The notes: generated by a model from the sequence alone, not told the origin. 64,000 nt of DNA from an uncultured Collinsella sp. (GCA_905199225.1 CAJKFS010000001.1:7895-71894), one strand, 5' to 3'; shown: positions 3,422-20,167, counted from the first letter of the stretch. Made by a program: numbers and translations.

Positions 3422-3447
3422 GTGAATTATCGACCTGTCAATCATGA

Positions 3448-4476
3448 TTGAGGGGTGCGGCAGCTTTGGACAATAGCGTTGCGTATGAGTTGTATCTATA
3501 CACGATTGATACTTACAAGAGACTTGCCAGCACGCTTCCACTTGATGAGAGGCTTGCCCGTTTCGATCCTAATTGCTTTTCGAAATTAGGTGAACTTGAG
3601 CTTGGGGATGAAGCGTTTGCTGCGGTCTCGGTGCGTCTTATGCTGCAGCGCAAGTATTTTGTGCGCGGAAAGGACTTGTTTCTCAGGAGGCTGCTCAAGT
3701 CTGCTGAACGGGACTTCGCTTCTAGTAAGGATGTGATTGAATCCTTGCTGGATAGTCTTGATGCCCTTAATAGCCAATCAATTGAGTTTGCCTTTGGGGA
3801 CGGCAAGGTTGTCGAGGGTGCCTTTGCAAACGTCGAAGATGTAATGTACGGAGTGCTGATGCACGCGGATATAACGCGGGCAGAGAACCTCGTCTCTGTT
3901 CCCGAACACATGAGACTGGTCGCCCTGGCACCGTATATCGCGGGGAGAGAACAGATTTTGCTGCAGTTCTCTGAGTTCCTTCTTAATGCTGGAATCAAGC
4001 CGCTATCGAGGAAAGAGGAAGCATCGGCAACTGTTTCGTTTGAATCAAAAGACGCTTGTCGCCAGATTGAGAATTCGCCATTTTGGCGAAATCTTCGCGG
4101 TAGAGATCTTGGGGATGAGGACATTGAGAAAAAGGTTCAGCAAGGTTCGCGCGATGATTTAGAGATAATCACCGCTGTTCTACTATTCAAAGAGGCGCTT
4201 GGCAGAAGGCCCCTGGACCCCAGCGAACTCAATTCCCTTGTCGCACGGGAGACCATTTTCAGATGGGGTGATTATTTGCAAGCCGCCGAGCTTTTGGAAG
4301 GGGATTATGGAATGAGCACTCTTGTTCGGTATCAAGAGGACGGCTCGGCCCTCGTAAAGCTTCTCCCAAACGTTCGAGAACCGTTTCTGATTGAGGGACC
4401 GCAGCTCATCGAGGGCGGGCATGAAATAGTTCTGGTGAAGCGGAACGGCATTTGGAAGATATGGGCTATGAGGTGA
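3448..4476 (+). CDS. Hypothetical protein of 342 aa with no recognisable motifs, co-oriented 26 bp downstream of the OLD-family gene
   Basis: Long ORF on the same strand with a TTG start. Codon usage and GC resemble the upstream OLD gene. I could recognise no catalytic motif. Confidence 0.55.
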   Translation: MRGAAALDNSVAYELYLYTIDTYKRLASTLPLDERLARFDPNCFSKLGELELGDEAFAAVSVRLMLQRKYFVRGKDLFLRRLLKSAERDFASSKDVIESLLDSLDALNSQSIEFAFGDGKVVEGAFANVEDVMYGVLMHADITRAENLVSVPEHMRLVALAPYIAGREQILLQFSEFLLNAGIKPLSRKEEASATVSFESKDACRQIENSPFWRNLRGRDLGDEDIEKKVQQGSRDDLEIITAVLLFKEALGRRPLDPSELNSLVARETIFRWGDYLQAAELLEGDYGMSTLVRYQEDGSALVKLLPNVREPFLIEGPQLIEGGHEIVLVKRNGIWKIWAMR

Positions 4477-4699
4477 CTCTTTTCATCTAGTTTGGACGGC
4501 CTTTTATCCATTGGCGGGCGACGTATCACTTCTTTTGCAATTTAACAGCCACATAGCGAGTACGGCCACGCCCAGTCATATGATTCCCGGCGCTAAATAG
4601 CAAATCACTGACGTGGGCGCATGGACCGCGTCTTCGAGAGTCGCAACAGTTGACGAGGAATCGTCGCGTAGGGATATAAAGAATCTGGTGAGTGCGTTA

Positions 4700-5135
4700 G
4701 CCAGAGATGGCTTTACCGGGTTGCCGATGGTGGAGCCGGGCGCTGGAAAAGTTCTTTGTCTTGTGACGATATGTTAAGATCGATACCGTTCAGTTCCCGG
4801 ATCCGCGGGTCGGTGTAGTTGGCGTTGTAGATTGTCGTGTGCACGTCTTCAACAAAGCGGCTTCGCCTGTTTTCGGTTTCTTGATGGCATGGAAGCTCAT
4901 CTTTTCTTGTTCCCCCAGGTCTCTTAAATTGCCTCGTCGAGAAGTTCTACAAAGAGCCTACTGTGACTTGCCAACTCATACACTGCAGTATAGCTTGCGC
5001 CCGCTTTCGCCTCGTGCCAGGCAAGCGGATCGTAGTAGGCGAGAACATTCAATACTGGAAGAAGGCATTGATATGGGAAGTGCCGTGCCTTTTTGCCACC
5101 AAAATGCCCACCGTGCTTAATGGCGTAATTCATAA
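4700..5135 (-). pseudogene. Probable decayed gene remnant in frameshifted fragments
   Basis: Two minus-strand protein-like fragments in different frames (...AYYDPLAWHEAKAGASYTAVYELASHSRLFVELLDEAI, then ...RFVEDVHTTIYNANYTDPRIRELNGIDLNISSQDKELFQRP). No intact ORF longer than 100 aa exists across 4480-5440. Confidence 0.3.
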
Positions 5136-5189
5136 GATTTGTTATGGTCTCGGCCGGCTAGTTACGGGCTGATTTCCTCAATCAAGGGG

Positions 5190-5300
5190 AGATGGTGTAG
5201 AGTATTTTCCTACAATACAAAAGCTCTTCGGGAGCTTTAAGGGCGACGCTTTCTGTTAGAGAGTGTTGCCCTTTTTTCATGCATGTAATGTGCGACGTGC
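5190..5300 (+). repeat. Copy B of the ~105-bp duplicated intergenic element, located ~145 bp upstream of the AbiL-like ATPase gene
   Basis: Same alignment as copy A. It lacks the left hairpin arm that copy A has. Confidence 0.8.
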
Positions 5301-5443
5301 TTGCTAAACGCCATTCCGGCAATGGGATGGTCGAGTGTGGGCGGTTTGCACCTTGCGCCTGCTGTCATTGGTGTAGCAAGCACTTGATTTAGCCTACTTA
5401 AAGTCTATAATCAAAGAAAAACTCTGATATACCTTTTAAAACA

Positions 5444-6682
5444 ATGAAAAGAATGTTGAGTACCATGCTTTGCCAGTTCACCTTCAGGAACTATAGATCC
5501 TATCGCGACGAGACCGAGCTTTCCATGCAGGCAACATCGATGAGGGAGTTCGAGCGTTCCCTCATAGAGTGCCCTGACGGGCAGAATTTCCTTCCGGTAG
5601 CTGCGGTGTACGGGCCTAACGCTGGCGGCAAGTCTAACCTGCTCGAAGCTCTTGACTATATTCGTTCGGCGGTGGCAAGGCCGATCAGATTGTTGTCTGC
5701 CAGCACTGATGTGCCAGAAGGTAACCGCTCTTCGATACCCCGTTGCTCTGCGTTCGAGTTCGATGACGTGTCGGCTGCTAAGCCCACCGAGTTCGAGCTC
5801 TACTATCGCGCAGGTGAGCATGAGTACCGCTATGCCCTGTCCGTGCATGCGGACGAGATTGTGTCCGAAGGACTGTGGCGGCGCAAATTGGGGGCGTCAC
5901 GCACAGCGATGCTGTTCGAGCGCGAGGGCACAGGGGTTGAGCTTGGTCCCACTCTGCGTAAGCTTGTCACGGCTGCGAGATTCAACCCGAGCCTGCCGTA
6001 CCTGTCGTTTCTCTGCATCAACTTTGACGCGCCGGTGGTCAAGGAGGCTGCCAGCTGGTTTCTTGACGGGGTGTTCCTGAACTATAACAGCTCCTATCTG
6101 GAGCAGATGCTCGAACAATTGCTCGACGAGGATGACTCACCCGAGGTCACGCGTTTTTTGTGCGCCGTTGATGTGCGTATTGATGGCTTCAGAGTGGAGA
6201 GGGCGCCGGAGTGGCGCGGCCAGCGCGTCTTCGTGAGGCACGAGGTGGGCGACAAGGCGTACGAGCTGCGTTTATCCGAGGAATCTGCCGGAACCCAGAA
6301 GCTCATGGGGTTGGCTGCGTATCTGATGACAGCGCTTGAGCGTGGTGGCACCGTTGTGGTAGACGAGCTCGACGCCAAACTGCACCCGAAGCTTCTTCGC
6401 TATGTGATTCTGCTGTTTAAGGATCCTGAGGTCAACAAGAGTGGCGCGCAGCTCATCTTCTCGTCCCAGGATGTGTCAACCATGCGAAACGATGTGTTCC
6501 GCCGTGACGAGATATGGTTCGCTGCGCGCGGCGAGGGGGAGGCGAGCCAACTGTGGTCTCTCGCCGACATCCACGAGGCAAACGGTAATCTGGTAAGCAA
6601 GAACGCGGCTCTCGACAAGCAATACCTGTCTGGTCGCTACGGCGCCGATCCGTATCTCACCCGCATCGAAGAGTGGGATTAG
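5444..6682 (+). CDS. AbiLi-like AAA_21/AAA_15 ATPase (ATP-binding partner of an RloB-type protein)
   Basis: Walker A YGPNAGGKSN. Walker B/D-loop VVVDELDAKLHPKL. The stop codon lies 1 nt before the start of the RloB-like gene. Confidence 0.8.
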   Translation: MKRMLSTMLCQFTFRNYRSYRDETELSMQATSMREFERSLIECPDGQNFLPVAAVYGPNAGGKSNLLEALDYIRSAVARPIRLLSASTDVPEGNRSSIPRCSAFEFDDVSAAKPTEFELYYRAGEHEYRYALSVHADEIVSEGLWRRKLGASRTAMLFEREGTGVELGPTLRKLVTAARFNPSLPYLSFLCINFDAPVVKEAASWFLDGVFLNYNSSYLEQMLEQLLDEDDSPEVTRFLCAVDVRIDGFRVERAPEWRGQRVFVRHEVGDKAYELRLSEESAGTQKLMGLAAYLMTALERGGTVVVDELDAKLHPKLLRYVILLFKDPEVNKSGAQLIFSSQDVSTMRNDVFRRDEIWFAARGEGEASQLWSLADIHEANGNLVSKNAALDKQYLSGRYGADPYLTRIEEWD

Positions 6683-6683
6683 C

Positions 6684-7304
6684 ATGCTGGCGAAGAAGTC
6701 GAAGGGCTGGCGTAGCGGCAAGCGCGAGGGCAAGGAGACCGAGCCTCGCTACTTTGAGGGTGTGCGTGCGGCGTTGGGCGCGGCGAACGAGCGTAAGGTT
6801 GCCATTGTCGTTAAGGGGACCGGCAAACACACGCTTGACCTACTTGACTTCGCCGTCGAACACTGCCGCTATGCGCCCGAGACATTCGACCATGTGTGGC
6901 TCGTGTATGACAAGGATGACTTTCCTGCGTCCGACTTTGACGCGATGGAGCGCAAATGCAACGAGCTCTCCGACGGTTCGAGGACCTTCCATGCGTTGTG
7001 GTCGAACCCCTGCTTCGAGCTGTGGCCGCTTCTGCACTTTCGCTACACGACCGCGCATATGTCCGCGTCCGACTGCCAGCATGTCCTCGCGCAGGAGATG
7101 TCGAGAGACCTGGGCATCGAGTACCGCAAGAACTTGGACGGGCTGTTCGAGGTGGTGGACGGCAAACGAGGCGAGGCATTGCAGCGTGTTGGGCGCCTCG
7201 TCACATACCATAGGGGGCTGGGTAACGTTAAGCCATCTGCGCAAAACCCTGCAACCAAGGTGGGCGAAATTTTCGATGTAATCGGGCCGTATCTGGTTGG
7301 CTAG
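6684..7304 (+). CDS. RloB-like / AbiLii-like protein (divergent TOPRIM)
   Basis: N-terminal GKETEPRYFEG motif, a central WLVYDKDDF motif, and SNPCFELWPLLHF. These are the characteristic RloB-family motifs. This frame is chosen over the overlapping frame at 6673. Confidence 0.85.
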   Translation: MLAKKSKGWRSGKREGKETEPRYFEGVRAALGAANERKVAIVVKGTGKHTLDLLDFAVEHCRYAPETFDHVWLVYDKDDFPASDFDAMERKCNELSDGSRTFHALWSNPCFELWPLLHFRYTTAHMSASDCQHVLAQEMSRDLGIEYRKNLDGLFEVVDGKRGEALQRVGRLVTYHRGLGNVKPSAQNPATKVGEIFDVIGPYLVG

Positions 7305-7650
7305 TCGAGTCTGTGGATTGGCTTTCCGGTTAGGGCGATTGGCGGATTATGATGCGCGATTGCAAATCCGGTGCGTAGGAGAAGTGCGGAGAAAAATCGA
7401 AACTCGCCGAGCATAGCCCGATTTCAGGCAACAAAACCGCAGGTCGCGGGTGCCCAAAACTAGGGTCTGGTCGACAGGTCTCGGTTTTTCACCCCACTTC
7501 CGAATTGGTCGCTCATTTAGCACTCTTGATGTCCCCACATCCTCTAAAAAAGTTCTTAAAACAGCCTTAAAGGCGTTCCAACTCGCGTTGACAGCGTAAA
7601 ATACGCATGTTTGACTATGACAGAAGTGGATTTTAGGGGAGGAGTACGCC

Positions 7651-9789
7651 ATGGAGGTGCTGGTTGTTGGCAACACCGCATATGTTGACGATGACTTTTG
7701 TGCCAAGGCGTTCCCCGGGGACCACGTTAAGGTCGTCGCTGCCGCGGAAGCGCGCCGCGACGAGTCGTCGCCCCATGCCTCGTGGAAAGAGCTCCTCCAG
7801 CACCTGGATCAGGCCTACGAGTTCGACCGCGTGGTTTACCTGTCTAATTACCTTACCCCGCATACCGATTCCGTGGGCGATATCGAGCTGCTGCGCTCGG
7901 TCTTTCGTACGTGCGCGGGTCGCCGGGTCCAACTGCTGTATGTAGCGGGGCCCGCGGGTGCCGAGGGTGCCGCCGATGCCGCGGGGCGAACGGGCAAGGG
8001 CATTATCGCGCACGCAGCCAACGACCTGTGCCGCTACTACGCTGCTCGCGAGGGCGTTCAGACCAAGATCCTGCGCGTGCCGTTCCTCTATACCGCGTCT
8101 GCCGCGCTGGAGGACCCGTTTTTGGTGCCGATGTTCGACGCATGCTCAACCGGATCGGCCGCTCTGCAGGGCGCGCAGGATGCGGCGTTTCCCCTGCTGT
8201 GTGCCGAGGAGCTTTCGGTGCTGGTACGCCGTATCTTCGACAGCTGGAATGCTAACTTTGAGACGCTCGACGTAGTCGATACCTTCCATCACACGGTGGG
8301 TGAGGTGGGCGACGCCCTCAAGGCGCTGTTCCCAGGGCTCTCAGTTGCCTATGGCGATTCTGCCGGCTACGCCCTGCCCGCCAGCGACGTCGCTCGCGTG
8401 CGCTATGGCTGGTTTCAGCGCTACGACTTGCTGCGCGACCTCTCGACCATTCAGGCTCGCTGGGATGCTGGCCGTGCAAAGAAGGTCAACCCCTTGCGCG
8501 CGGCCATCGACCGCATTCAAATGCGCACGCTGCCTGTCAAATGCCTGGAGACGGCAGCCGCCTGGGTGCTCTTTGAAGTGCTGGAGCGCTTGTTCTCCCA
8601 ATCGACCCAGCTCAACGTGCTCGATTATCGCCTGCTCTACGTGGTGCTGATCGGCACGCTGTATGGCTTGGACTTTGGCCTGGTTGCGGCGCTGCTGGCG
8701 TCGGTGGGTTTGGCTGCGAGTTACTTTACTCTGTACGGCTATACCTTCCAGGGCCTGTTCTACGAGCCGTCCAACTGGCTGCCGTTTATTGCGTACTTTG
8801 TTGTGGGTGCCGTGTGCGGCTATGTGCAGCTGCGCAACAGCGAAGCCATTAGGGCGGAGCGCGATCAAAACGAGCTCGTGCGCAACCGCAATACGTTCCT
8901 TACGCAGCTCTATCACGACGCGATCGAGGACAAGCGTGCGTACAGGCGCCAGATCGTGGGTCGCCACGACAGCTTTGGCAAGATCTTTGCCGTGACGCAG
9001 GAGCTCGACGTGCTCAACCCACGCGACATCTATCGCAAGTGCTGCGAGCTTCTGGGCGAGATCCTCGAGAACGATTCGGTGGCGATCTACCATGTTTCGG
9101 GCGGGGCATTTGCACGCCTGGTGGCGGCAAGTCCCGCGATTGCCGAAGATGCCGCACGTTCGCTCACGCTTGAGCAGCTTGCACCTCTTTTGAGCGACGG
9201 GGGTCGTTCGAACCTGTGGGTGAACCGCGAACTGATGCCGGGGCTTCCCATGTTTTGTTATACGATCGAGCGCGATGGGGCACCCGCCGTGTTGATCTTT
9301 GTGCGTCGCGCGGCCGAAAACCAAATGACCCTCTATTACCAAAACCTGTTCCGCATCTTGTGTGGCCTGGTCGAAAGCGCGCTGGGCCGTGCCTTTGACT
9401 ATGAGGCGGTGGCACAGGATAAACGCTGCGTTGACGGCACTTGCGTGCTCAAGCAGGCTGCCTTTGGCCAAGAGCTCGCGGCCGAGCAGGCGCTGGCAGA
9501 TGGCAAGATGGGGAGTTTTTTGCTCCTGCGCGTGGTACCAGGCATGGAGCCTATCGGCGAGCTGGTGGGCGCGATTGGGTCGGCGATCCGCGAGAGCGAT
9601 GCGGCGGGCCTGATCGACGGCGACGTGCTCTACCTGCTTATGCGCCAGGCAAAGGCATGCGATCTGCCCATTATCCGCGAGCGCCTGAGCGAAAAGCAGA
9701 TTGAGGTGGAGCCCGTCGACGGCGAGGATATCGTGGCGCTGTTGCAGCACATCTCTTACACCGGTGACGGTGAGGGGGGTGCCGCTTGA
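7651..9789 (+). CDS. pelD: PelD-like c-di-GMP receptor: N-terminal degenerate SDR/epimerase-like domain, transmembrane helices, and a GAF / degenerate-GGDEF C-terminus
   Basis: RESD(x5)DGDVL gives an intact I-site RxxD five residues before a degenerate GG(D/E)EF position. Hydrophobic helices occur near residues 330-400. The N-terminus (VLVVGN..., ...RVPFLYTAS) looks like a Rossmann/epimerase fold without GxxGxxG. It is the first gene of an operon containing pelF and pelG. The ATG is preceded by GGGGAGGAG. Confidence 0.6.
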   Translation: MEVLVVGNTAYVDDDFCAKAFPGDHVKVVAAAEARRDESSPHASWKELLQHLDQAYEFDRVVYLSNYLTPHTDSVGDIELLRSVFRTCAGRRVQLLYVAGPAGAEGAADAAGRTGKGIIAHAANDLCRYYAAREGVQTKILRVPFLYTASAALEDPFLVPMFDACSTGSAALQGAQDAAFPLLCAEELSVLVRRIFDSWNANFETLDVVDTFHHTVGEVGDALKALFPGLSVAYGDSAGYALPASDVARVRYGWFQRYDLLRDLSTIQARWDAGRAKKVNPLRAAIDRIQMRTLPVKCLETAAAWVLFEVLERLFSQSTQLNVLDYRLLYVVLIGTLYGLDFGLVAALLASVGLAASYFTLYGYTFQGLFYEPSNWLPFIAYFVVGAVCGYVQLRNSEAIRAERDQNELVRNRNTFLTQLYHDAIEDKRAYRRQIVGRHDSFGKIFAVTQELDVLNPRDIYRKCCELLGEILENDSVAIYHVSGGAFARLVAASPAIAEDAARSLTLEQLAPLLSDGGRSNLWVNRELMPGLPMFCYTIERDGAPAVLIFVRRAAENQMTLYYQNLFRILCGLVESALGRAFDYEAVAQDKRCVDGTCVLKQAAFGQELAAEQALADGKMGSFLLLRVVPGMEPIGELVGAIGSAIRESDAAGLIDGDVLYLLMRQAKACDLPIIRERLSEKQIEVEPVDGEDIVALLQHISYTGDGEGGAA

Positions 9790-10691
9790 TCTCGCTTGTC
9801 GTTGCTGCCGTCTTGCTGCTGATTCATGCGCTGGTTTGCCTGGTGCTGTGGACGCTCATGAAGTTGGGCCTGCTGCCGGTGCGCGGGCACATGCTGCCTG
9901 TGATAGTGCTGGTGCCGCTGTGGGGCCCGTTGCTGGTGGTTCTGCTATCGGTCTGCAGCGCGGTGTTTGGCGAGGGACTGAATGAGTCTGCGCTGGAGTC
10001 GCTGCGCTTCAACGACGACCTGCATCGCAGCATCTTAGTGCACGAACGTGATGCCGATGCAGGCGTGATCCCGCTCGAGGAGGCGCTCATCGTCAACGAC
10101 CCGGCAGACCGGCGCCGCCTAATGCTCTCCATGCTCACCGAGGAGCCCGACGCGTACCTGGCGCAGCTGCAGGCGGCTAAGCTTAACGACGACGTTGAGG
10201 TGGCTCACTATGCCGCGACGGCGGTGGCGCAGATCTCCAAGGAGTCCGACCTTAAACTGCAGCAGCTGGAGCGTGCCTTTAAGACGGACCCGAGCGCGCA
10301 AAACCTCAACGAATACTGCGATTTTCTTGGTGAATACTTGGGCTCGGGCTTGGCTGAGGGGCGCGTGGCTCAGATTCAACGCCAACAGTACGCGCGCTTG
10401 CTTGCGCGTCGCTGCGAGCGCGAGGACACCCTTGAGCTTCGCATTCGATACGCGACGGCGCTGGCCGATGTCGGACAGATCGACGAGGCGCAGGCCGTGA
10501 CCGACCAGCTGGTGCTCGACGTGCCCGAGGAGCAGGAGGTTTGGATGCTTTGCCTGCGCCTGGCGGTGATGCGCCGCGACGGTGACGAGGTCCACCGCGT
10601 GATCGATGCGATTGACAAACAGCATGTATACTTGAGCGCCGCCAACCGCGAGGAACTGGCGTTTTGGCGCAACGGAGAGGAGGCCCGATGA
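9786..10691 (+). CDS. pelE: PelE-like membrane protein (N-terminal transmembrane helices plus helical/TPR-like repeats)
   Basis: A hydrophobic N-terminus with two predicted transmembrane segments is followed by an alpha-helical repeat region. Its position between pelD and pelA matches Gram-positive pel operons. The TTG start overlaps the pelD stop. Confidence 0.5.
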   Translation: MISLVVAAVLLLIHALVCLVLWTLMKLGLLPVRGHMLPVIVLVPLWGPLLVVLLSVCSAVFGEGLNESALESLRFNDDLHRSILVHERDADAGVIPLEEALIVNDPADRRRLMLSMLTEEPDAYLAQLQAAKLNDDVEVAHYAATAVAQISKESDLKLQQLERAFKTDPSAQNLNEYCDFLGEYLGSGLAEGRVAQIQRQQYARLLARRCEREDTLELRIRYATALADVGQIDEAQAVTDQLVLDVPEEQEVWMLCLRLAVMRRDGDEVHRVIDAIDKQHVYLSAANREELAFWRNGEEAR

Positions 10692-12568
10692 GCGTGGTGC
10701 AGCATATCCGCGACCGTGCGGGCCATTTTCGCTGGATGGGGCTGCTTGTGGTGTGGGCGGTCTTTATTGCCATGGCGGCCGTGCTGCTGGTGGAGCGCGC
10801 CGGCGTGCAGTACAGTGCGGGCCAGCATAAGCTGGGGATGCTTGCCGCCAACGATGCGGTGCCGGCTTCCTCCGCAATATTTGGCCAAAAGCCCACGTGC
10901 CTGGTCATTACCGATTCCGACCAAGCTGGCGTCGAGGACGTAAAGGAGCAGTTTGACCAGATCCTGCTCGACATGAAGATCGCGCACCGCGACGTGGACC
11001 TTGCCCTGGACGGCGTGGATGCCATTCCCTCGCTGACCTCCTTCGATCGCGTGATTTTGCTCATGCCGTCGCTCGATGGGCTCGGTACGCACCTGAGTGA
11101 CATTATGAGTTGGGTGAGTGCCGGTGGTTCGCTTATGCTCGCCATGCCTCCGGATAACTCGAGCTATCTGCAAGTAATTGCCCCCAAGCTTGGCATTGAA
11201 TCGGCCGGATATGACTATGTAAAAGCCGAAAGCATTGTGCCGAGCGAGGACTTTATGCTGGGCGGGGGAGAGCGCTACGAGCTCTCGGACCCCTTCGATT
11301 CGTCGCTTTCGGTTTCGCTGCGCGAGACGGCTCGTGTGTGGGCTAAGACCGGCGATGCGGGCGCCCCGCTCATTTGGTCGAATGACTGCGGTAGCGGGCG
11401 CACCGTGGTATGCAATATCGGTATCTATGACAAGGTTATGCGCGGTTTTTACGCCGCGGCGATCAGCCTGCTGGGCGATGCCACGGCCTATCCGGTCATC
11501 AACAGCGCCGTTTTCTACCTAGACGACTTTCCCAGCCCCGTGCCCTCGGGCGATGGCACCTACATCAAGCGCGACTACGGGCTTTCCATTGCCGATTTTT
11601 ACACCAAGGTTTGGTGGCCCGATCTGCAAAAGCTCGCGCAAAAATATGGCATTCGCTTTACCGGCGTGATGATCGAAAACTACGAGGACGCGGTCAACCA
11701 GACCGAGCCCGCGCGCCAGGCCGATACCACGCAGTTCCGCTACTTTGGCGGTATGCTGCTGCAGATGGGCGGAGAGCTGGGCTTTCACGGCTACAACCAT
11801 CAGCCTCTGGCGCTCTGGGATACCGACTATGGCAAGCTGTACGACTACAAGACGTGGAAGAACGAGGAAACGCTCGTCGCGTCGCTCAACGAGCTCATCG
11901 CCTTTCAGGACGAGGTGCTGCCCAACGCGCACGGCTCGGTCTATGTGCCACCGTCGAATATCCTTTCGGCCCGTGCGCGCAAGCTTATTGGCACCGACGT
12001 TCCGCGCATTAAGACCATCGCCAGTACGTATTTTGAGGATGGCACCGTCTTGCCCCATGTGCAGGAGTTTGGCGTGGCGAGCGATGGCATTGTGGAGCAG
12101 CCACGTATTGTCTCGGGCGGCATGGTCAACGATTCCTATATGCGTCTGGCAGCCGTGTCCGAGCTCAACATGCACTACGTGAGTACGCACTTTATGCACC
12201 CGGATGATCTGCTCGATCCCGATCGCGGCGCCAAGGAGGGCTGGGAGGTCTACAAGGGCGGTCTGACCAACTACCTGGAGTGGCTTACCAAGTCTGCGCC
12301 CGACCTGCGGCGCCAGACCGGTTCGGAATGCTCGGGCGCCATCCAGCGCTTTTCGTCCGTGACGGTGAGCGTGGATACAAGTGCGGATGCCTGGACGCTC
12401 AGCCTGGGCAATTTCCACGACGAGGCGTGGCTCATGTTCCGCGCCAACAACGGTGAGCCCGGTGCAGTCACGGGTGGCGAGATTACGCATCTGACGGGCG
12501 ACCTGTACCTGGTCAAAGCCACGGACAAGACGGTGACCATTGCACGCAAGGAGGGTGGCGACAAATGA
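10688..12568 (+). CDS. pelA: PelA-like polysaccharide deacetylase (CE4-like) with an N-terminal membrane anchor
   Basis: CE4-like motif 1 FYLDDFP and motif 2 HGYNHQP. An N-terminal transmembrane helix is present. ATGA start/stop coupling links it to pelE upstream and pelF downstream. Confidence 0.55.
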   Translation: MSVVQHIRDRAGHFRWMGLLVVWAVFIAMAAVLLVERAGVQYSAGQHKLGMLAANDAVPASSAIFGQKPTCLVITDSDQAGVEDVKEQFDQILLDMKIAHRDVDLALDGVDAIPSLTSFDRVILLMPSLDGLGTHLSDIMSWVSAGGSLMLAMPPDNSSYLQVIAPKLGIESAGYDYVKAESIVPSEDFMLGGGERYELSDPFDSSLSVSLRETARVWAKTGDAGAPLIWSNDCGSGRTVVCNIGIYDKVMRGFYAAAISLLGDATAYPVINSAVFYLDDFPSPVPSGDGTYIKRDYGLSIADFYTKVWWPDLQKLAQKYGIRFTGVMIENYEDAVNQTEPARQADTTQFRYFGGMLLQMGGELGFHGYNHQPLALWDTDYGKLYDYKTWKNEETLVASLNELIAFQDEVLPNAHGSVYVPPSNILSARARKLIGTDVPRIKTIASTYFEDGTVLPHVQEFGVASDGIVEQPRIVSGGMVNDSYMRLAAVSELNMHYVSTHFMHPDDLLDPDRGAKEGWEVYKGGLTNYLEWLTKSAPDLRRQTGSECSGAIQRFSSVTVSVDTSADAWTLSLGNFHDEAWLMFRANNGEPGAVTGGEITHLTGDLYLVKATDKTVTIARKEGGDK

Positions 12569-13992
12569 GAATCTGCTTGGTACTCGAGGGTTGCTACCCC
12601 TATGTGCACGGCGGCGTGTCCACCTGGATGCACGGCTACATACAGGCCATGCCCGAGCACGAGTTTGTGCTGTGGGTGATTGGCGCGCATGCTGTCGACC
12701 GCGGCAAGTTTGTCTACGAGCTGCCCGGCAACGTGGTCGAGGTGCACGAGGTGTTTCTGGACGACGCCCTGCGCCTATCGGGCGAGCAAGAAGAGGCCGA
12801 CTTTAACGCCCGCGAGCGCGAGGCGCTGCGCCGCCTGGTGTCGCTCTCCAATCCGGACTGGGACGTGCTATTCGATATCTTCCAGCGCCGTCGCGTGCAT
12901 CCGCTCTCGTTTTTGCAGAGTCGCGCCTTTATGGATATCTTTCGCGACGTGTGCCTGGCCGAGTACCCATACACGCCCTTTGCCGATGCATTCCACACCA
13001 TGCGCTCCATGCTGCTGCCCGTGCTCTACCTTCTGGGCAGCGAGGTGCCGGTGGCCGATGTGTACCACGCCATCTCGACCGGCTACGGTGGCCTGCTCGC
13101 CTGCCTGGGCTCAAGCGTTCACCATGCGCCGGTGCTGCTGACCGAGCATGGCATCTATACTCGCGAACGCGAGGAAGAGATCATTCGCGCTGACTGGGTG
13201 GTGCCGTCGTTTAAGGACCGCTGGATCCGCTTTTTCTACCTGCTTTCGGAGGAGATCTACCGTCGCGCCTTCCGCGTGACCAGTTTGTTCCATAACGCCC
13301 GCAAGACGCAGATCGATATGGGCTGCGATGCGGACAAATGCCTGGTCATCCCCAACGGCATCCAGTTCGACCGCTTTAAGGACATTCCCTTAAAGCCCGA
13401 TGACGGCTGGGTGGACATTGGCGCGGTGGTGCGCCTGGCGCCCATCAAGGACGTCAAGACCATGATCTATGCGTTCTTTGAGCTGCACGAGCGCCTGCCC
13501 AAGGTGCGCCTGCACGTTATGGGCGGCGTGGACGACGAGGAGTACGGCGCTGAGTGCCACGCGCTGGTCGATACCCTGGGCGTGCGCGACCTGATCTTTA
13601 CCGGCCGCGTCAACGTGGTCGAGTACATGGAAAAGCTCGACTTTACCATTTTGACGAGCATCTCCGAGGGCCAGCCACTCAGCGTGCTGGAGTCGCTTGC
13701 AGCGCGCCGTCCCTGCGTGACGACCGAGGTGGGCTGCTGTCGCGAGCTGCTCGAAGGCGCCCCGGGCGACGACTTTGGCGTGGCGGGTTTTGTGACGCCG
13801 CCCATGTATCGCAAGGGCTTGGCCGATGCCATGGAGCGCATGTGCGTGAGCCGCGCCCGTCGCATTGAGATGGGGGAGCGCGGGCAGCGTCGCGTTGCCA
13901 CGTACTTTTTGCACGAGCAGATGCTCGCCAACTATCGCGCGCTGTACGACGAGACGGCGTGTGCGTTTAACCTGCCCAGAGAGGGGGAGTAG
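12565..13992 (+). CDS. pelF: PelF, a GT4-family glycosyltransferase with an N-terminal DUF3492
   Basis: N-terminus MRICLVLEGCYPYVHGGVSTW matches the PelF/DUF3492 signature (CLLLEG.YPYV.GGVSSW). The C-terminus has the GT4 fold motif E..GQPLSVLES.A. Confidence 0.85.
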   Translation: MRICLVLEGCYPYVHGGVSTWMHGYIQAMPEHEFVLWVIGAHAVDRGKFVYELPGNVVEVHEVFLDDALRLSGEQEEADFNAREREALRRLVSLSNPDWDVLFDIFQRRRVHPLSFLQSRAFMDIFRDVCLAEYPYTPFADAFHTMRSMLLPVLYLLGSEVPVADVYHAISTGYGGLLACLGSSVHHAPVLLTEHGIYTREREEEIIRADWVVPSFKDRWIRFFYLLSEEIYRRAFRVTSLFHNARKTQIDMGCDADKCLVIPNGIQFDRFKDIPLKPDDGWVDIGAVVRLAPIKDVKTMIYAFFELHERLPKVRLHVMGGVDDEEYGAECHALVDTLGVRDLIFTGRVNVVEYMEKLDFTILTSISEGQPLSVLESLAARRPCVTTEVGCCRELLEGAPGDDFGVAGFVTPPMYRKGLADAMERMCVSRARRIEMGERGQRRVATYFLHEQMLANYRALYDETACAFNLPREGE

Positions 13993-13995
13993 CCG

Positions 13996-15540
13996 GTGGC
14001 CGGAATTGGTTTTGAGCTCAAGCGCCTGTTTAGGCGCAAGGGCCTGTTTGCCACGATGCGCGCTTACGGCTACGCCGGCATCGTATGCACGGGCCCCATG
14101 CTGCTGGGTGTGCTGCTGCAGGTGGGTATTTTGGTGCTGTGCGGTCTGTGGGGTGTGGGCCGTGCCAACCAGGATCTGCTGGTGTGCATGGTGACCTACA
14201 CACTGCTGGCCTCGCTTGCGCTCACGAGCTTTTTCTCCATGCCGGTCACGCGCTTTTTGGCTGATATGTTGTTTGCCGAGCGCGAGGATGAGATACTGCC
14301 TTCGTTTTGGGGCTCCAATGCTGTCATGCTCGTTGCGGGCACGGTGCTCTACGGCGTTTTTTTGCTGTTCTCGGGCGCCACGCTGCTGCAGGGGCTGCTA
14401 TGCCTGTGGCTGTTCAACATTATGATCGTCAACTGGAACGGCATGAGTTACCTCACGGCCATCAAGGATTACCGCGGTATCCTGTGCAGCTTTGCGGCTG
14501 CCATTGGCGTGGCGTGCCTGTGCGCTCTGGCCGCGCTGGCGCTGGGACTGCCGCCGGTCGAGGGCCTGCTGGCGTCAATCGCTCTGGGCTACGGCGTGAT
14601 GCTCGCTTGGGACGTGGTGCTGCTGTACCGGTATTTTCCACGGAGTGACCGGAGTCCCTGGCGTTTTTTGCGCTGGCTCGACCAATTTATGCCGCTTGCG
14701 CTTACGGGGCTGTTTACCAACTTGGGGCTTTTCGCACACCTGGTTATTATCTGGGCGGGCCCTATTGGCGTGCAGATCAAAGGCCTGTTTTACGGGGCTC
14801 CTTACCATGACGTGCCGGCACTCATTGCGTTTTTGACCACACTCGTCACGACCGTCAACTTTGTGGTGTCGGTCGAGGTCAATTTCTATCCGCGCTACCG
14901 TGACTACTACAGCCTTTTTAACGACGGCGGCGTGGTGGGCGATATTGTGGTGGCCGAGGAGGAGATGCTCTCCACGCTCAACAGCGAACTGCGCTTTTGC
15001 GCGCTCAAGCAGCTGTTTGTGACGGCGGCGGTCATTTCGCTCGAGACCACAGTGCTCTCGGCCCTGCCGCTGGGCTTTAACAATCTTATGCACGGGTATT
15101 TTCGCACGTTATGCGTAGGCTACGGCCTGTATGCCGTGGGCAACACGATCCTGCTTATCTTGCTGTACTTTACCGACTACAAGGGAGCCGTTCTGGCCTC
15201 GGGCCTGTTTGCCGGTGTGGCAGGGTTGGCGACCGCCGTGTCGTTGCTTTTGCCGCAGCAGTTTTACGGCTTTGGCTTTTTGTTGGGTGCGGTGGTGTTT
15301 TTTATCGTGGCCCTGCTGCGGCTCGATACCTATACCGCCAACTTGCCGTATCGTATCCTGAGCCAGCAGCCCATTGTGGCGACCGACAAAACGGGTCGCT
15401 TTACACAGCTGGGCCGCTTGCTCGACCGTGCCGAGCAGCGCTATGAGGAGTGCCGCCGCAAGGGCGTGCCGCACGGCGCGTTTCAGCGCGCAGTAGTTCG
15501 CGTGTATCGCAACCATTGGGGAGGTTCTGATGATCGATAA
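13996..15540 (+). CDS. pelG: PelG, a polytopic membrane protein (MOP/flippase-like)
   Basis: N-terminus MAGIGFELKRLFRRKGLFATMRAYGYAGIVCTGPMLLGVLL closely resembles PelG N-termini. Roughly 12 hydrophobic segments are present. GTG start. Confidence 0.85.
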   Translation: MAGIGFELKRLFRRKGLFATMRAYGYAGIVCTGPMLLGVLLQVGILVLCGLWGVGRANQDLLVCMVTYTLLASLALTSFFSMPVTRFLADMLFAEREDEILPSFWGSNAVMLVAGTVLYGVFLLFSGATLLQGLLCLWLFNIMIVNWNGMSYLTAIKDYRGILCSFAAAIGVACLCALAALALGLPPVEGLLASIALGYGVMLAWDVVLLYRYFPRSDRSPWRFLRWLDQFMPLALTGLFTNLGLFAHLVIIWAGPIGVQIKGLFYGAPYHDVPALIAFLTTLVTTVNFVVSVEVNFYPRYRDYYSLFNDGGVVGDIVVAEEEMLSTLNSELRFCALKQLFVTAAVISLETTVLSALPLGFNNLMHGYFRTLCVGYGLYAVGNTILLILLYFTDYKGAVLASGLFAGVAGLATAVSLLLPQQFYGFGFLLGAVVFFIVALLRLDTYTANLPYRILSQQPIVATDKTGRFTQLGRLLDRAEQRYEECRRKGVPHGAFQRAVVRVYRNHWGGSDDR

Positions 15541-17299
15541 GTTGATGTCTCGCCGCTGCCTGATCGAGGCGGCTGCCGGCGCGCTGCTGCTTTCGGGCTG
15601 CTCATCTCAGGACGAATCCTCGACCAAAAAGGTCAAAAAGCAGGACAAGATTAAAAAGGCCGAGTCCTCGGACGCTACCAAGCACCTACGCGATAAAGAC
15701 GAGCTGTACGAGGTCTACGACGACTCGGGCATTGTGACCATGTACCTGACGGTCTCGCGCGGCAACAGCTCCGAGAACACCGACCACAGCTGGGCCGAGA
15801 TCAATACGTACTCGGTGTATGACTATGCCGACATGGGCGTGACGCGCTATCAGGTAATGGGCCTTTTGCAGGCGGGCGACGAAGACGGCCCGGCGGCCGG
15901 CGAGGTTGGCTATGGCGAGGAAGCGCCCAATGCTACCGTGCAGGTGCGCGGTCAGACATCGAGCATGAACTCGCAAAAGAATTACAAGGTGGAGCTCAAA
16001 AAGGGCAAGGGTACCTGGCGCCAGCAGCGCGCGATTGCGCTCAACAAGCACATGGGCGAGGGTATGCGTTTTCGCAACAAGATGGCCTACGACCTTATCC
16101 GCGGAATCCCCCAGATGATGGGCCTGCGCACGCAGTTTGTGCATCTTTGGGTGTGCGATCAGACCGAAAAGTCCAACGATACCTTTGAGGACTACGGCCT
16201 GTTTACGCAGGTGGAGCAGCTCAACAAGACGGCGCTCAAGGCACATGGCCTGGATAAGAGCGGGCACCTGTACAAGGTGAACAGCTTCGATTTCCGCCGC
16301 TACGAGGACACCATTAAACTTGCCGACGACCCAGACTACAACCAGGCAAACTTTGAGGGCATGCTCGAGATCAAGGGAGACTCGGACCACACCAAGCTTA
16401 TCGAGATGCTCGAGGCGCTCAACGACGATACGCAAAAGATCGACGATGTGCTCGACACCTACTTTGATACCGAGAACCTGGTCTATTGGCTGGCGTTTCA
16501 GCTCCTGACGGGCAACTGCGATACGCAGAACCGTAACTGCTATCTGTATAGCCCGCTCAACTCCAATACGTGGTACATCCTCGATTGGGACAACGACGGC
16601 ATGCTGCGCAAGCTGGAGCTGTCTCTGACCGGCTTTTCGGACTATGCGAGCTGGGAGCGCGGCGTAAGCAACTACTGGGGCAACGTGCTATTCAATCGTG
16701 CAATGCGTAGCAAATCGTTCCGCAGCGAGCTCGACCGCGCCGTAAAGGACCTGCGCTCGTATATGACCGAGGCACGTCTTGCCAAGATGATCAAACATTA
16801 TCGCGAGGTTACCGAATCCCTGGTTTTTGCCTCGCCCGATATCGACAATCTGCCTGTCACCAAGGACCAATACGAGCAGATCGCCGCGGCGATTCCCTCC
16901 GAGATCGAGGAGAACTATAAGAGCTACTGCGAGAGCTATAAAAAGCCCATGCCGTTCTACATTGGCGTGCCGCAGATCGATAACGGTAAGCTGCGCATTA
17001 ACTGGGATGCGTCCTACGACTTTAAGGCGCGTGACATTCGCTATACCGTGGAGCTGGCGCGCGACTATGCCATAAGCGACGTGCTTTTTAAGGCCGAGGA
17101 CGTGCTGCTGCCCGAAGTGACCTGCGATGCGCCCGATGCCGGCCAGTATTTTGTGCGCGTGCGCGCCACCAACTCAGACGGCTATACGCAAGATGCGTTT
17201 GACTACTATGTGACCGACGACGGCAAGCACTACGGCATGAAGTGTTTTTACGTGCAAGACGGCGGTAAGGTCGTGGAGGACACGTATGAGGAAGGCTAG
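15530..17299 (+). CDS. Secreted lipoprotein, CotH-like (atypical kinase family) candidate
   Basis: Lipobox LLLSGCSS. A NCYLYSPLNSNTWYILDWDNDGM segment resembles the CotH core. The start overlaps the pelG end by 11 bp. It is followed by VTC and DUF4956 genes, a recurrent CotH neighbourhood. Confidence 0.45.
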   Translation: MIDKLMSRRCLIEAAAGALLLSGCSSQDESSTKKVKKQDKIKKAESSDATKHLRDKDELYEVYDDSGIVTMYLTVSRGNSSENTDHSWAEINTYSVYDYADMGVTRYQVMGLLQAGDEDGPAAGEVGYGEEAPNATVQVRGQTSSMNSQKNYKVELKKGKGTWRQQRAIALNKHMGEGMRFRNKMAYDLIRGIPQMMGLRTQFVHLWVCDQTEKSNDTFEDYGLFTQVEQLNKTALKAHGLDKSGHLYKVNSFDFRRYEDTIKLADDPDYNQANFEGMLEIKGDSDHTKLIEMLEALNDDTQKIDDVLDTYFDTENLVYWLAFQLLTGNCDTQNRNCYLYSPLNSNTWYILDWDNDGMLRKLELSLTGFSDYASWERGVSNYWGNVLFNRAMRSKSFRSELDRAVKDLRSYMTEARLAKMIKHYREVTESLVFASPDIDNLPVTKDQYEQIAAAIPSEIEENYKSYCESYKKPMPFYIGVPQIDNGKLRINWDASYDFKARDIRYTVELARDYAISDVLFKAEDVLLPEVTCDAPDAGQYFVRVRATNSDGYTQDAFDYYVTDDGKHYGMKCFYVQDGGKVVEDTYEEG

Positions 17300-18077
17300 C
17301 GCGCTGCTTGAGCGCTTGGCGGCTCCGCCTGTGCGTGCCACGCAGGAGCGTTACCGCCACGAGCTCAAATATCTCATTAACGAGGGTGAGCACGCCGCGC
17401 TGGCCTGCCGCATGGCGCCGGTTTTCAAGCTAGACAAGCATGCGCAGGCGGGCGGCTATACCATTCGCAGCCTGTACTTTGACGACTACTGCAACTCGGC
17501 CTACGAAGAAAAAGACGCCGGCATTCTTATGCGCAAAAAGTATCGCGTGCGCATCTATAACGGCAGCGACAAGGTGATTAAGCTCGAGCGTAAAAAGAAG
17601 TACGGTAGCTGGATCTACAAGGAGGACGCGCCGCTCACGCGCGGCGAGTTTGAACAGATTCTGGCCGGAGACTACGACTTTTTGCTGAGGAGCCCCTATC
17701 CCCTCTGTCGCGAGTTCTACATCGAGTGCATCTGCAACATGATGCGCCCGCGGACCATCGTGGACTACGAGCGCGAGCCGTGGGTGATGGACGAGGGCAC
17801 CGTGCGCATTACCTTTGATAGCAACGTGCGTGCCGCGGTGGGAAGCTTCGACATCTTTGACGCGACGCTGCCCGCGCTGCCGGTCCTGGAGCCCGGCAAG
17901 CTGGTGATGGAGGTCAAGTTTACGGAGTTTTGCCCGCAGCTGGTGCGCGATATGGTGCCGCCGGGCGCGGCCGAGCTCACGGCGGTCTCCAAGTACTGCC
18001 TGTGTTACGAAAAGACCGCCTACCTGCGCGGATTTAATTACTGGGAATCGGATTTTGAGAACCGAGGGGATATTTAG
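17286..18077 (+). CDS. VTC-domain (CYTH-like, polyphosphate-polymerase-domain) protein
   Basis: LKYLINEGEHAAL...GYTIRSLYFDD...KYRVRIY matches the bacterial VTC-domain pattern. It overlaps the upstream gene by 14 bp. Confidence 0.65.
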   Translation: MRKASALLERLAAPPVRATQERYRHELKYLINEGEHAALACRMAPVFKLDKHAQAGGYTIRSLYFDDYCNSAYEEKDAGILMRKKYRVRIYNGSDKVIKLERKKKYGSWIYKEDAPLTRGEFEQILAGDYDFLLRSPYPLCREFYIECICNMMRPRTIVDYEREPWVMDEGTVRITFDSNVRAAVGSFDIFDATLPALPVLEPGKLVMEVKFTEFCPQLVRDMVPPGAAELTAVSKYCLCYEKTAYLRGFNYWESDFENRGDI

Positions 18078-18080
18078 ACC

Positions 18081-18746
18081 ATGAGCACCAGGGACTTTTT
18101 TAAGAACTCCGTCTTGGAGGCGTTTGGCCAGGTCGACCCTGCCAAGATCGGCCTGTCGCTGCTCGTGGCGCTCGCCATGGGCATCCTGATCTATTACGTG
18201 TACAAGCGCTTTTTTACCGGCGTGGTGTATTCGCGCAGTTTTGCCGTGACGCTTGTGGGCATGTGCGTGCTTACCTGCATGGTTACGCTCGCGATCTCGA
18301 CGAACGTGGTCATCTCGCTCGGTATGGTCGGCGCTCTGTCCATCGTTCGTTACCGTACGGCGGTCAAGGACCCGCTCGACCTGCTGTATCTGTTTTGGGC
18401 CATTACGACGGGTATTACGGCCGGCGCCGGCATGTATGCGCTCGTGGGGCTCACGGCAGCGGTGATCGTGGTGATGATCGCCGGCTTTGCGAGCCACCAG
18501 GACAAGGCGCGTGTGTACATGATGGTCATCCACTACACGGGCCAGACCACCGGCGACGATATCGTGCGCGCGTTTGGGCGTACCAAGTTCACCGTCAAAT
18601 CTAAGACGATGCGCGGTGACAAGGTCGAGATGGCCGTCGAGGTGTTCTCGGACGGCGTTGACATGCCCTACGCCGATGCGATTCGCGCGCTCGACGGCGT
18701 TGAGGACCTGACGCTCATCCAGTACAACGGCGAATATCACGGCTAG
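18081..18746 (+). CDS. DUF4956-like small membrane protein
   Basis: Three to four hydrophobic helices followed by a soluble C-terminal domain. It lies 3 bp after the VTC gene, the usual VTC/DUF4956 pairing. Confidence 0.55.
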   Translation: MSTRDFFKNSVLEAFGQVDPAKIGLSLLVALAMGILIYYVYKRFFTGVVYSRSFAVTLVGMCVLTCMVTLAISTNVVISLGMVGALSIVRYRTAVKDPLDLLYLFWAITTGITAGAGMYALVGLTAAVIVVMIAGFASHQDKARVYMMVIHYTGQTTGDDIVRAFGRTKFTVKSKTMRGDKVEMAVEVFSDGVDMPYADAIRALDGVEDLTLIQYNGEYHG

Positions 18747-18776: not shown

Positions 18777-19013
18777 CCGCTCGACGCTGCGCGGGCATCT
18801 GCCGGGCGATCTGCCGCTCAAACCGTCGCTCGCGTACATAAAGTACGCGTCGCTCCTCTTTTGTGGCACCTCGCCACGGCAGCTGCCCGTTCGCTGGCGT
18901 ATGCTCGACCAGGATGGGCATATTTGGTTCGGTTTAAATTGATTTATTATGCCGACTTGGGCTGGGTATGATGGTGCAAACGATTGCAAGATAAAGGGGT
19001 GCTCGTGGTAAAG

Positions 19014-19985
19014 ATGAAAGATGTGGCCGAGCTAGCGGGCGTTTCGAGCGCCGCCGTCTCGCGCTACCTCAACGGTGGATATATCTCGGCGGACAAGGCC
19101 GAGCGCATTAAGCAGGCGATTGAGCTGACCGGATACGTGCGGTCCAACCAGGCCCGCGCGCTGCGCACCGGCTCCACCAAGCTCATCGGCGTCATCGTGC
19201 CCAAGATCAACTCGGAATCCGTGAGCCGCATTACTGCGGGTATCGGTCAGGTGCTCGGTCGCCGCGGGTACCAGATGCTGCTCGCGAATACTGACAACGT
19301 GGCCGAGCGCGAGCTCGAGTATCTCGACTTGTTCCAGAACCACCCGGTCGATGGCATCGTGCTCGTGGCAACCATGATTACCGATGAGCACCGTGCGGCC
19401 ATTGCGTCTTGCCGTGTACCCATTGTGCTGATCGGCCAAAACGTCGAGGGCGCGGCTTGCGTCTACCATGACGATTACGAGGCTGCCTTTGAGCTGGGCC
19501 AGGCGCTTGCGACGCATGTTGAGGGCAAGATTGCCTATATCGGTGTTACCGAGGAAGACCGTGCCGCCGGTTACGACCGTCGTCGTGGTTTTGAAGCTGG
19601 TCTGGGCGCCGCGGGCGTTGTGCTCGATCCCGATTTGATTCGCTGCGGGTCCTTTACCCTCGATTCCGGCTATCGTGCGTCGCGCGAGCTGCTGGGCGAA
19701 GTGCCGGATGTTTCGTTTATCGCGTGCGCGACCGACACTATGGCGGCCGGCGCCCTGCGCGCTCTTGACGAGGCGCGCGGCATGGGCGAGGGCGTGCGTC
19801 GCGTGAGCGGTTTTGGCGACAACGCATTTTTGCGCGCGCTGACGGGCGGCATTCCCACCGTGCATTACGGTTACCTGACCAGTGGCGTCGAGGCGACCAA
19901 TATGTTGCTCAACACGCTCGATGGCGTGGAGGGGGAGAGCGGCCTCAAGACGCTCAAGCTCGGACATCAGCTGATGAATGTCTAG
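19014..19985 (+). CDS. scrR: LacI-family transcriptional regulator (sucrose operon repressor candidate)
   Basis: N-terminal HTH MKDVAELAGVSSAAVSRYLNG and a periplasmic-binding-protein-like C-terminus. It is directly upstream of the PTS and GH32 genes. The start could be 18984 (TTG) or 19014 (ATG). Confidence 0.8.
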   Translation: MKDVAELAGVSSAAVSRYLNGGYISADKAERIKQAIELTGYVRSNQARALRTGSTKLIGVIVPKINSESVSRITAGIGQVLGRRGYQMLLANTDNVAERELEYLDLFQNHPVDGIVLVATMITDEHRAAIASCRVPIVLIGQNVEGAACVYHDDYEAAFELGQALATHVEGKIAYIGVTEEDRAAGYDRRRGFEAGLGAAGVVLDPDLIRCGSFTLDSGYRASRELLGEVPDVSFIACATDTMAAGALRALDEARGMGEGVRRVSGFGDNAFLRALTGGIPTVHYGYLTSGVEATNMLLNTLDGVEGESGLKTLKLGHQLMNV

Positions 19986-20167
19986 GCTTTGGGCATGTCT
20001 GCCGGCCTTTGATTCCCTGTTTTTGGCTCAAAACCACCTTTCACCGTCAAATATCTACCGTTTACCGCTAATGAAAACGATTACAGCTATATATAACTGA
20101 AAACGATTACAGTGTAAGTGTCAAAGATGGCCGGGTGCAGATGCGCCCGTTGGAGGAAAGGGAAGTC

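Follow-up and report, generated by a model that had tools for sequence, protein, structure and literature searches.

Does a run of contiguous genes in the genome of an uncultured member of the genus Collinsella encode the machinery for the exopolysaccharide Pel, and would the activity of this machinery depend on cyclic di-GMP (c-di-GMP)? The genes in question lie in a 64-kb stretch of DNA (GCA_905199225.1 CAJKFS010000001.1:7895-71894), here denoted the window, and all coordinates given below follow the window numbering. A reading made from the sequence alone had assigned positions 7651-15540 to a Gram-positive-type pelD-E-A-F-G operon in a high-GC actinobacterial background and had taken c-di-GMP control to be implied. 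The analysis described here points to a chromosomal Pel biosynthesis operon of the Gram-positive pelDEA_DAFG type that additionally carries a cotH/VTC/DUF4956 module, eight genes in all, with a probability of roughly 0.85; that the locus is a Pel system is considered more probable still.

In the open reading frame (ORF) map, five successive ORFs on the + strand fill 7651-15540, the interval given by the sequence-only reading. The five pel genes thus stand but the end of the operon does not, given that the cluster runs past 15540 into three more + strand genes, up to 18746. The eight co-directional genes span 7651-18746 (+), and the locus is laid out as follows (lengths in amino acids, aa, or nucleotides, nt).

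7305..7650, + strand: leader upstream of pelD, a 346-nt untranslated region, presumed promoter/leader
7651..9789, + strand: pelD-like gene, 712 aa, assigned by class III architecture, fold, motifs and position
9589-9591 (R647), 9598-9600 (D650) and 9682-9684 (R678), + strand: predicted inhibitory-site (I-site) codons of PelD
9786..10691, + strand: pelE-like gene, 301 aa, assigned by position, transmembrane segments and a region resembling tetratricopeptide repeats (TPR)
10688..12568, + strand: pelA_DA gene, DUF2194 deacetylase of the carbohydrate esterase family 26 (CE26) type, 626 aa, assigned by PF09960 and the structure 9ZAU
12565..13992, + strand: pelF gene, family 4 glycosyltransferase (GT4), 475 aa, assigned by NF038011 and DUF3492
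13996..15540, + strand: pelG gene, polytopic membrane exporter, 514 aa, assigned by PF16933
15530..17299, + strand: cotH-like gene, 589 aa, assigned by PF08757
17286..18077, + strand: VTC-domain gene, 263 aa, assigned by PF09359
18081..18746, + strand: DUF4956 gene, 221 aa, last of the cluster, assigned by PF16316

The order D-E-A-F-G is contiguous and in one direction, without pelB or pelC. The start/stop overlaps said to link these genes are found at three of the four junctions, each of 4 nt (TTGA at pelD/pelE; ATGA at pelE/pelA_DA, given the pelA_DA start at ATG 10688; ATGA at pelA_DA/pelF), whereas between pelF and pelG there is a 3-nt spacer instead of an overlap. Further downstream, pelG overlaps the cotH-like gene by 11 nt, the latter overlaps the VTC-domain gene by 14 nt, and a 3-nt gap separates the VTC-domain gene from the DUF4956 gene. 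The high-GC actinobacterial background is likewise borne out: the host belongs to Collinsella (class Coriobacteriia, phylum Actinomycetota), the GC content is 0.60 in the pel cluster vs 0.615 in the remaining window, and the GC content at third codon positions (GC3) is 0.75-0.82 in the cluster, both values being close to those of housekeeping genes.

The identity of the cluster is most directly evident from PelF and PelG. PelF scores 319.9 bits against the NCBIfam equivalog NF038011 (cut-off 100) and 272 bits against DUF3492 (PF11997; cut-off 23.3), with GT1/GT4 domains also found, and the peptide by which the sequence-only reading had recognized the DUF3492 N-terminus, CLVLEGCYPYVHGGVSTW, is located at residue 4. 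Hydropathy analysis reveals no transmembrane segments in PelF, and a sequence search of the PDB retrieves only generic GT4 enzymes. PelG matches PF16933 across the entire model with 457 bits (cut-off 29, E 8e-137) and contains about 12 or more hydrophobic segments by hydropathy; the two peptides cited in its support, MAGIGFELKRLFRR and AYGYAGIV, are found at residues 1 and 23, respectively. A PDB sequence search with PelG yields no solved Pel component. Neither PelF nor PelG thus falls short of the thresholds of the respective profile hidden Markov models (HMMs).

The pelA_DA ORF opens at TTG 10664 (634 aa); the likely start is ATG 10688, which is preceded by a Shine-Dalgarno sequence and yields a protein of 626 aa. 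With residue numbers counted from the TTG, the product matches DUF2194 (PF09960) over its full length with 573 bits (cut-off 30.4) and is homologous to the structurally characterized PelA_DA of Bacillus cereus (9ZAU; E 1.8e-59 over residues 145-626). The B. cereus enzyme, the founding member of CE26, de-N-acetylates alpha-1,4-linked N-acetylgalactosamine (GalNAc) oligomers and employs D262/D263, an HxxxH motif, P405, R458, H488 and D491 (PMC13254593). The CE26 features that were checked, namely the MT1 DD pair, the MT2 HxxxH motif, the MT3 proline, the base-coordinating arginine, and the MT5 histidine with the next aspartate, are all present in the Collinsella protein as D287/D288, H375xxxH379, P429, R481, H512 and D515, which accounts for every named catalytic or metal-binding residue. 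In addition, hydropathy indicates an N-terminal transmembrane anchor (residues 25-43). The PelA-like deacetylase proposed earlier is therefore supported by family, by structure-linked homology and by a complete set of catalytic residues.

The PelD-like protein consists of a short-chain dehydrogenase/reductase (SDR)/epimerase region that is degenerate (residues 1-275), about four transmembrane helices (residues ~295-395), a GAF domain (~455-590) and a degenerate GGDEF domain (~595-705). Among 1.84 billion cluster representatives, searched exhaustively, 1,057 relatives were identified, most of them ~700 aa long, with a subset of ~590 aa that lacks the C-terminus; the top sequence cluster represents 18,216 database sequences. 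When the PDB is searched with a PelD family profile, built from 52 relatives and the query, residues 1-275 align with extended SDRs such as L-threonine dehydrogenase and NDP-sugar epimerases (E 2e-17). Concordantly, the AF2 model of the full-length protein (predicted local distance difference test score, pLDDT, 90.1) retrieves sugar epimerases and dehydratases as the top Foldseek matches, including the UDP-GlcNAc 4-epimerase 3M2P (E 4.5e-9). The motifs that define these enzymes are lost: the position of the Rossmann GxxGxxG cofactor motif reads G7-N-T-A-Y-V-D13, the YxxxK catalytic positions are occupied by K116 and A120, and in the family (53 homologues) the five most frequent residues at positions 116 and 120 include neither Y nor K.

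Because SDR enzymes swamped the list of structural matches, the C-terminal part of PelD (residues 430-712) was modeled separately (pLDDT 91, predicted TM-score 0.87). The best match of this model in the PDB is 4DN0, residues 156-455 of Pseudomonas aeruginosa PelD with c-di-GMP (E 2.5e-7, Foldseek), and further matches include other PelD entries (4ETZ) and GAF-GGDEF cyclases. The corresponding sequence profile aligns with the GGDEF domains of cyclases (E 0.0013), such that R647-E-S-D650 falls on the RxxD inhibitory site, and IDGDV on the GGEEF motif, of SiaD (7E6G), a diguanylate cyclase. The RxxD motif is located five residues ahead of IDGDV, the degenerate GGDEF position, and R678 at +31, which is the spacing of R359/R390 in PleD. 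Among the GGDEF-bearing PelD homologues, which show 23-57% identity to the Collinsella protein and in which the GGDEF motif has decayed, the three residues are retained almost throughout (R647 in 47/48, D650 in 49/49, R678 in 47/49), and all three are invariant in the C-terminal alignment of 20 sequences. Judging by these alignments, PelD keeps an intact predicted I-site. Class III PelD has been defined by a degenerate SDR domain, transmembrane helices, a GAF domain and a degenerate GGDEF domain with an intact I-site (PMC7890745), and the Collinsella architecture is exactly this one, given an SDR/epimerase fold devoid of the cofactor and catalytic motifs and a degenerate GGDEF domain that is kept. 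The proposed PelD-like receptor is hence recovered in its fold, which at the C-terminus is nearest to 4DN0 in the PDB, in its transmembrane-GAF-degenerate GGDEF layout and in its I-site residues.

The gene that holds the interval between pelD and pelA_DA, overlapping both, encodes a protein with transmembrane-like segments at residues 2-20, 27-45 and 39-57, two or three in count, and its position is unchanged in relatives with 38-45% PelD identity. TPR models score just under the Pfam cut-offs (TPR_19, 23.3 bits vs 25; TPR_14, 18.6 bits), and the PelE-like claim thus corresponds to a transmembrane and TPR-like protein in the PelE position. Taken together, the flanking proteins (a DUF2194 deacetylase, the PelE-like protein and a protein with the PelD fold) do not make up an unrelated polysaccharide locus, and the Gram-positive-type pelD-E-A-F-G cluster is established by PelF, PelG and PelA_DA, all of which exceed curated HMM cut-offs by wide margins. 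The profile search with all five Pel families that had been suggested succeeds for these three and gives no specific match for PelD, while the TPR matches of PelE stay below threshold.

The three genes downstream of pelG belong to known accessory families. The cotH-like protein matches PF08757 (CotH) with 221.8 bits and is related to B. cereus CotH (5JD9; E 4.5e-5), with the NxD...N and WDxD stretches retained. The protein, predicted to have a kinase fold, begins with MIDKLMSRRCLIEAAAGALLLSGC (encoded at 15530-15610), and in its N-terminus, MSRRCLIEAAAGALLLSGC, an LSGC lipobox comes after an SRR motif, as would be expected of an extracytoplasmic lipoprotein, possibly one exported by the twin-arginine translocation (Tat) pathway. 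The VTC-domain protein resembles polyphosphate polymerases (PF09359, 110.9 bits), has no transmembrane segments by hydropathy, and finds no match in the PDB by sequence; its gene is the accessory gene that was termed "PPP" by Whitfield et al. (2020, PLoS Pathog, PMC7112168). The DUF4956 protein (PF16316, 44.4 bits) has three transmembrane-like segments. The cotH/PPP/DUF4956 set is reported to be located downstream of pelDEA_DAFG wherever PelD contains the extra epimerase-like domain (PMC7112168), and in Streptococcus intermedius, loss of the CotH-like gene or of the membrane-protein gene alters Pel levels and aggregation (PMC12345266). Among the metagenomic relatives, a locus with 44% PelD identity (L085, 10001-21078) has the same eight-gene layout, pelDEAFG followed by CotH, VTC and DUF4956, whereas in one with 38% identity (L086, 1190-10390) pelDEAFG is followed by DUF4832 only, which indicates that the accessory module is of a mix-and-match kind.

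By homology to the systems of P. aeruginosa, B. cereus and S. intermedius, we infer that Collinsella makes Pel, and from the same homology a polymer chemistry, a mode of c-di-GMP binding and roles for the accessory genes can be outlined. Cytoplasmic PelF, a GT4 enzyme, would polymerize a GalNAc-rich alpha-1,4-linked polymer from UDP-GalNAc, presumably within a membrane complex with PelD, PelE as a transmembrane/TPR scaffold, and PelG, which would carry the chain across the membrane. The membrane-anchored, extracytoplasmic PelA_DA is expected to partly de-N-acetylate the chain, so that the matrix polymer becomes cationic and adhesive. PelB and PelC would not be needed because there is no outer membrane. 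The class III PelD most likely would turn the synthase on once c-di-GMP occupies the I-site (R647, D650, R678), and the CotH-like lipoprotein, the VTC-like protein and the DUF4956 protein probably modulate Pel output, possibly via phosphate or polyphosphate.

Several points weigh against this reading. No PelD-specific model in Pfam or NCBIfam matches the PelD-like protein at E <= 0.01 (the sole Pfam match is a weak, sub-threshold DUF4118 membrane domain at residues 301-397), and neither phmmer nor profile searches of the PDB reached the P. aeruginosa PelD chains, so that the protein is assigned to PelD by its fold, domain architecture, motifs and position in the cluster and not by a sequence match. 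The TM-score to 4DN0 is only ~0.4, with a large root-mean-square deviation; this is attributed to a differing orientation of the GAF and GGDEF domains in the model, the individual domains being matched. Of the five assignments, that of the PelE-like protein is the weakest, its evidence being position, transmembrane segments and sub-threshold TPR matches, with no relatives in a PDB sequence search. The literature search yielded neither experiments on Collinsella Pel nor any report on c-di-GMP in this genus. Finally, tblastn with ad hoc consensus queries, run without a positive control, detected no gene for a GGDEF, EAL or HD-GYP protein in the 64-kb window or, at 80 Collinsella loci (1.38 Mb in total, every one centered on pel), in the sequence up to 10 kb away from pelD. 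Thus, the diguanylate cyclase search that the sequence-only reading had called for came back empty within this range and with these queries. The sole tblastn match, an EAL match inside infB (E 0.008), is considered a chance occurrence, and Pfam scans within the window gave none of the three families.

Control of Collinsella Pel by c-di-GMP nevertheless is a plausible reading of the intact, selected I-site and, on balance, appears probable. The strongest competitor, which we consider unlikely without dismissing it, is that Pel is made but the Collinsella PelD is no c-di-GMP switch, its I-site binding another nucleotide or being a relic; output then would be set by transcription and/or the CotH/VTC/DUF4956 module, as must be the case in streptococci with a PelD that lacks the GGDEF domain. 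This alternative gains from the literature search, which yielded no link between Collinsella and c-di-GMP, and from the presence of the same accessory genes in the c-di-GMP-independent streptococcal loci, where they affect Pel levels. It also gains from the lack of any gene for a diguanylate cyclase (DGC) or c-di-GMP phosphodiesterase (PDE) near pel in the window and the 80 loci, unlike the situation in bifidobacteria, where such a gene is reported to reside inside the pel cluster (PMC7112168). Next to pel in the more distant PelD relatives, most of which are on short contigs, no DGC or PDE gene was seen either. However, the lack of a neighboring cyclase is uninformative with respect to the rest of a genome of roughly 2.4 Mb. 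R647, D650 and R678 are near-invariant at 23-57% identity despite the decay of GGDEF, a pattern that implies selection on ligand binding, and the same three positions are essential in B. cereus PelD, where mutants of R363, D366 and R395 are abolished in c-di-GMP binding and biofilm formation (PMC7112168).

A second alternative retains the Pel-like machinery but assigns to it a chemically different polymer, with another sugar or with a phosphate modification introduced via CotH/VTC. PelF is only moderately similar to the characterized PelF proteins and belongs to a clade without a characterized member, and divergent operons may give another product, as pointed out in a companion paper (PMC7112194). 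Yet PelA_DA has the complete catalytic apparatus of its B. cereus counterpart, which acts on alpha-1,4-GalNAc oligomers, and the Pel-like polymer of S. intermedius, a species that has these accessory genes as well, is GalNAc-rich, so a different product is considered quite improbable.

More speculative, and assigned a low probability, is the proposal that the cotH-like, VTC and DUF4956 genes constitute an extracytoplasmic phosphorylation system attached to the Pel synthase. Polyphosphate would be made in the cytoplasm by the VTC-like enzyme, and it or phosphate would be moved outward by the DUF4956 membrane protein, by analogy with the yeast VTC complex; on the outer face, the CotH-fold lipoprotein would use it in the phosphorylation of Pel or of a protein of the matrix or the host. 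In a Collinsella that may lack diguanylate cyclases, the output of matrix would then be set by this module instead of c-di-GMP.

The operon reading with which we proceed, eight genes for Pel biosynthesis and its modulation, is reinforced by the distribution of the cluster. In a collection with one genome per GTDB species, PelD-like relatives are present at at least 575 places, and the best 80 of these, with 94-100% PelD identity and C. aerofaciens ATCC 25986 among them, all carry the label Collinsella, Coriobacteriaceae or uncultured bacterium. Enough downstream sequence is available at 55 loci, and in 54 of them all eight genes are present and intact. The lone exception (L003, Collinsella sp. 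AF29-7AC, 14915-16337) has pelF split in two frames near residues 235-237 in an otherwise intact cluster, owing either to an error in sequencing or to a pseudogene confined to that strain. In pairwise comparisons with the window, the ratio of non-synonymous to synonymous substitution rates (dN/dS) is 0.02-0.16 for each of the eight genes, all of which are thus under purifying selection. Completeness across the genus, low dN/dS and housekeeping-like GC and GC3 show that the cluster is a long-resident, selected part of Collinsella; a recent horizontal transfer was considered and rejected on the grounds of base composition and presence across the genus. The L003 frameshift and a literature search that yielded no expression or phenotype data could be adduced for a cluster that is cryptic or in decay and has no present function, but this reading is barely credible given eight intact ORFs in the window, completeness in 54/55 loci, dN/dS of 0.02-0.16 and housekeeping-like GC and GC3. 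Collinsella is an abundant actinobacterium of the human gut, and a conserved, selected locus suggests that a Pel-type matrix or aggregation is part of its life there.

The leader upstream of pelD contains no Rfam family that reaches threshold, and thus no credible c-di-GMP or other riboswitch; a match to the glycine riboswitch at 7377-7449 (17.9 bits vs a gathering score of 32, E 0.55) was judged to be due to chance. The leader folds no more stably than shuffled sequences (z 0.04), a consensus promoter scan finds nothing in it, and over the cluster, consensus scans for promoters and terminators show no excess of sites above shuffled sequence. Directly upstream of pelD lies a low-GC (0.46-0.51) anti-phage defense island at 411-7304, with the following genes.

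411-1352: AbiD (E 1.5e-44)
1595-3421: AAA ATPase resembling AriA / NsnB / GajA
3448-4476: 342-aa partner of the AAA ATPase
5444-6682: AbiLi (E 7e-83)
6684-7304: AbiLii/RloB, forming the AbiL pair with AbiLi

The island is strain-variable: of the 80 Collinsella loci, ~30 have AbiL, whereas the pair at 1595-4476 recurs in only one other. On the opposite side, the DUF4956 gene is followed, after a 237-nt gap, by an unrelated sucrose/fructan utilization unit consisting of LacI, phosphotransferase system (PTS) EIIBC and GH32 genes (18984-23208); LacI is present in 21 other loci, the retrieved flanks being too short to judge PTS EIIBC and GH32. The remaining window encodes housekeeping functions (guaB, leuS, nusA, infB, dnaG, rpoD, recG, smc, ftsY, ffh, thyA), and the larger ORFs scanned elsewhere in it belong to housekeeping families or have no match. 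A tRNA gene (42050-42121) represents the single Rfam family in the window at gathering score.

How does the Collinsella locus compare with the known Pel systems? The P. aeruginosa pelABCDEFG operon shares with it the synthase core of PelD, PelE (PelE-like in Collinsella), PelF and PelG and a polymer-modifying deacetylase, and P. aeruginosa PelD, a GAF domain with a degenerate GGDEF domain, provides the best structural match (4DN0) of the Collinsella PelD. The Collinsella cluster differs in that it lacks the outer-membrane export components PelB and PelC, in that its PelA is a deacetylase-only DUF2194 protein whereas P. aeruginosa PelA combines hydrolase and deacetylase, and in the extra N-terminal SDR-like domain of its PelD. 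The experimentally characterized pelDEA_DAFG locus of B. cereus ATCC 10987 has homologous PelF, PelG and PelA_DA, the last with the same kinds of catalytic residues, and in it R363, D366 and R395 of PelD correspond to Collinsella R647, D650 and R678. The B. cereus PelD, however, is of class I, without an SDR domain, in contrast to the class III protein of Collinsella; its locus has a flanking pelA_H and galE and no cotH/VTC/DUF4956 module; and its binding of c-di-GMP is proven, whereas that of the Collinsella protein is predicted.

The pel locus of S. intermedius makes GalNAc-rich Pel that drives aggregation (PMC12345266) and shares with Collinsella the degenerate SDR, transmembrane and GAF parts of PelD as well as genes for a secreted CotH-like protein, a polyphosphate polymerase-like protein and a small membrane protein downstream. 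Streptococcal PelD belongs to class IV, in which GGDEF is lost and c-di-GMP is not bound, unlike the Collinsella protein, which keeps both GGDEF and the I-site, and streptococci carry a fourth accessory gene that is not found in Collinsella.

In the survey of Whitfield et al. (2020), the pelDEA_DAFG core was described as conserved in "bacilli, clostridia, streptococci, and actinobacteria", and the extended actinobacterial PelD with a degenerate epimerase domain, together with the cotH/PPP/DUF4956 set, was already reported (PMC7112168). Two Collinsella genomes, C. aerofaciens C11 and C. aerofaciens indica, are entered in its S1 Table, which gives the species along with the accessions of PelG and of the genome (PMC7112168), and nothing else of relevance on Collinsella and Pel was found in the literature. 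The statement in the sequence-only reading that pelB/pelC-less Pel loci are known from Firmicutes, which would make an actinobacterial one noteworthy, is therefore outdated, actinobacteria having been reported in 2020 (PMC7112168). The surveyed loci agree with the Collinsella cluster in the five core genes and their order, in having no pelB or pelC, in the extended PelD and in the contiguous cotH/PPP/DUF4956 genes; the only difference is a small one of layout, in that Collinsella is without the fourth accessory gene, for which bifidobacteria have a DGC/PDE gene and streptococci and clostridia have DUF4832. The implication for a Pel-type lifestyle in the gut was already available from the 2020 survey, and the window adds no new kind of system. 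Because that survey covers both the locus type and C. aerofaciens, the Collinsella locus is already known, and its recognition here is a correct re-identification of a cataloged type of Pel operon.

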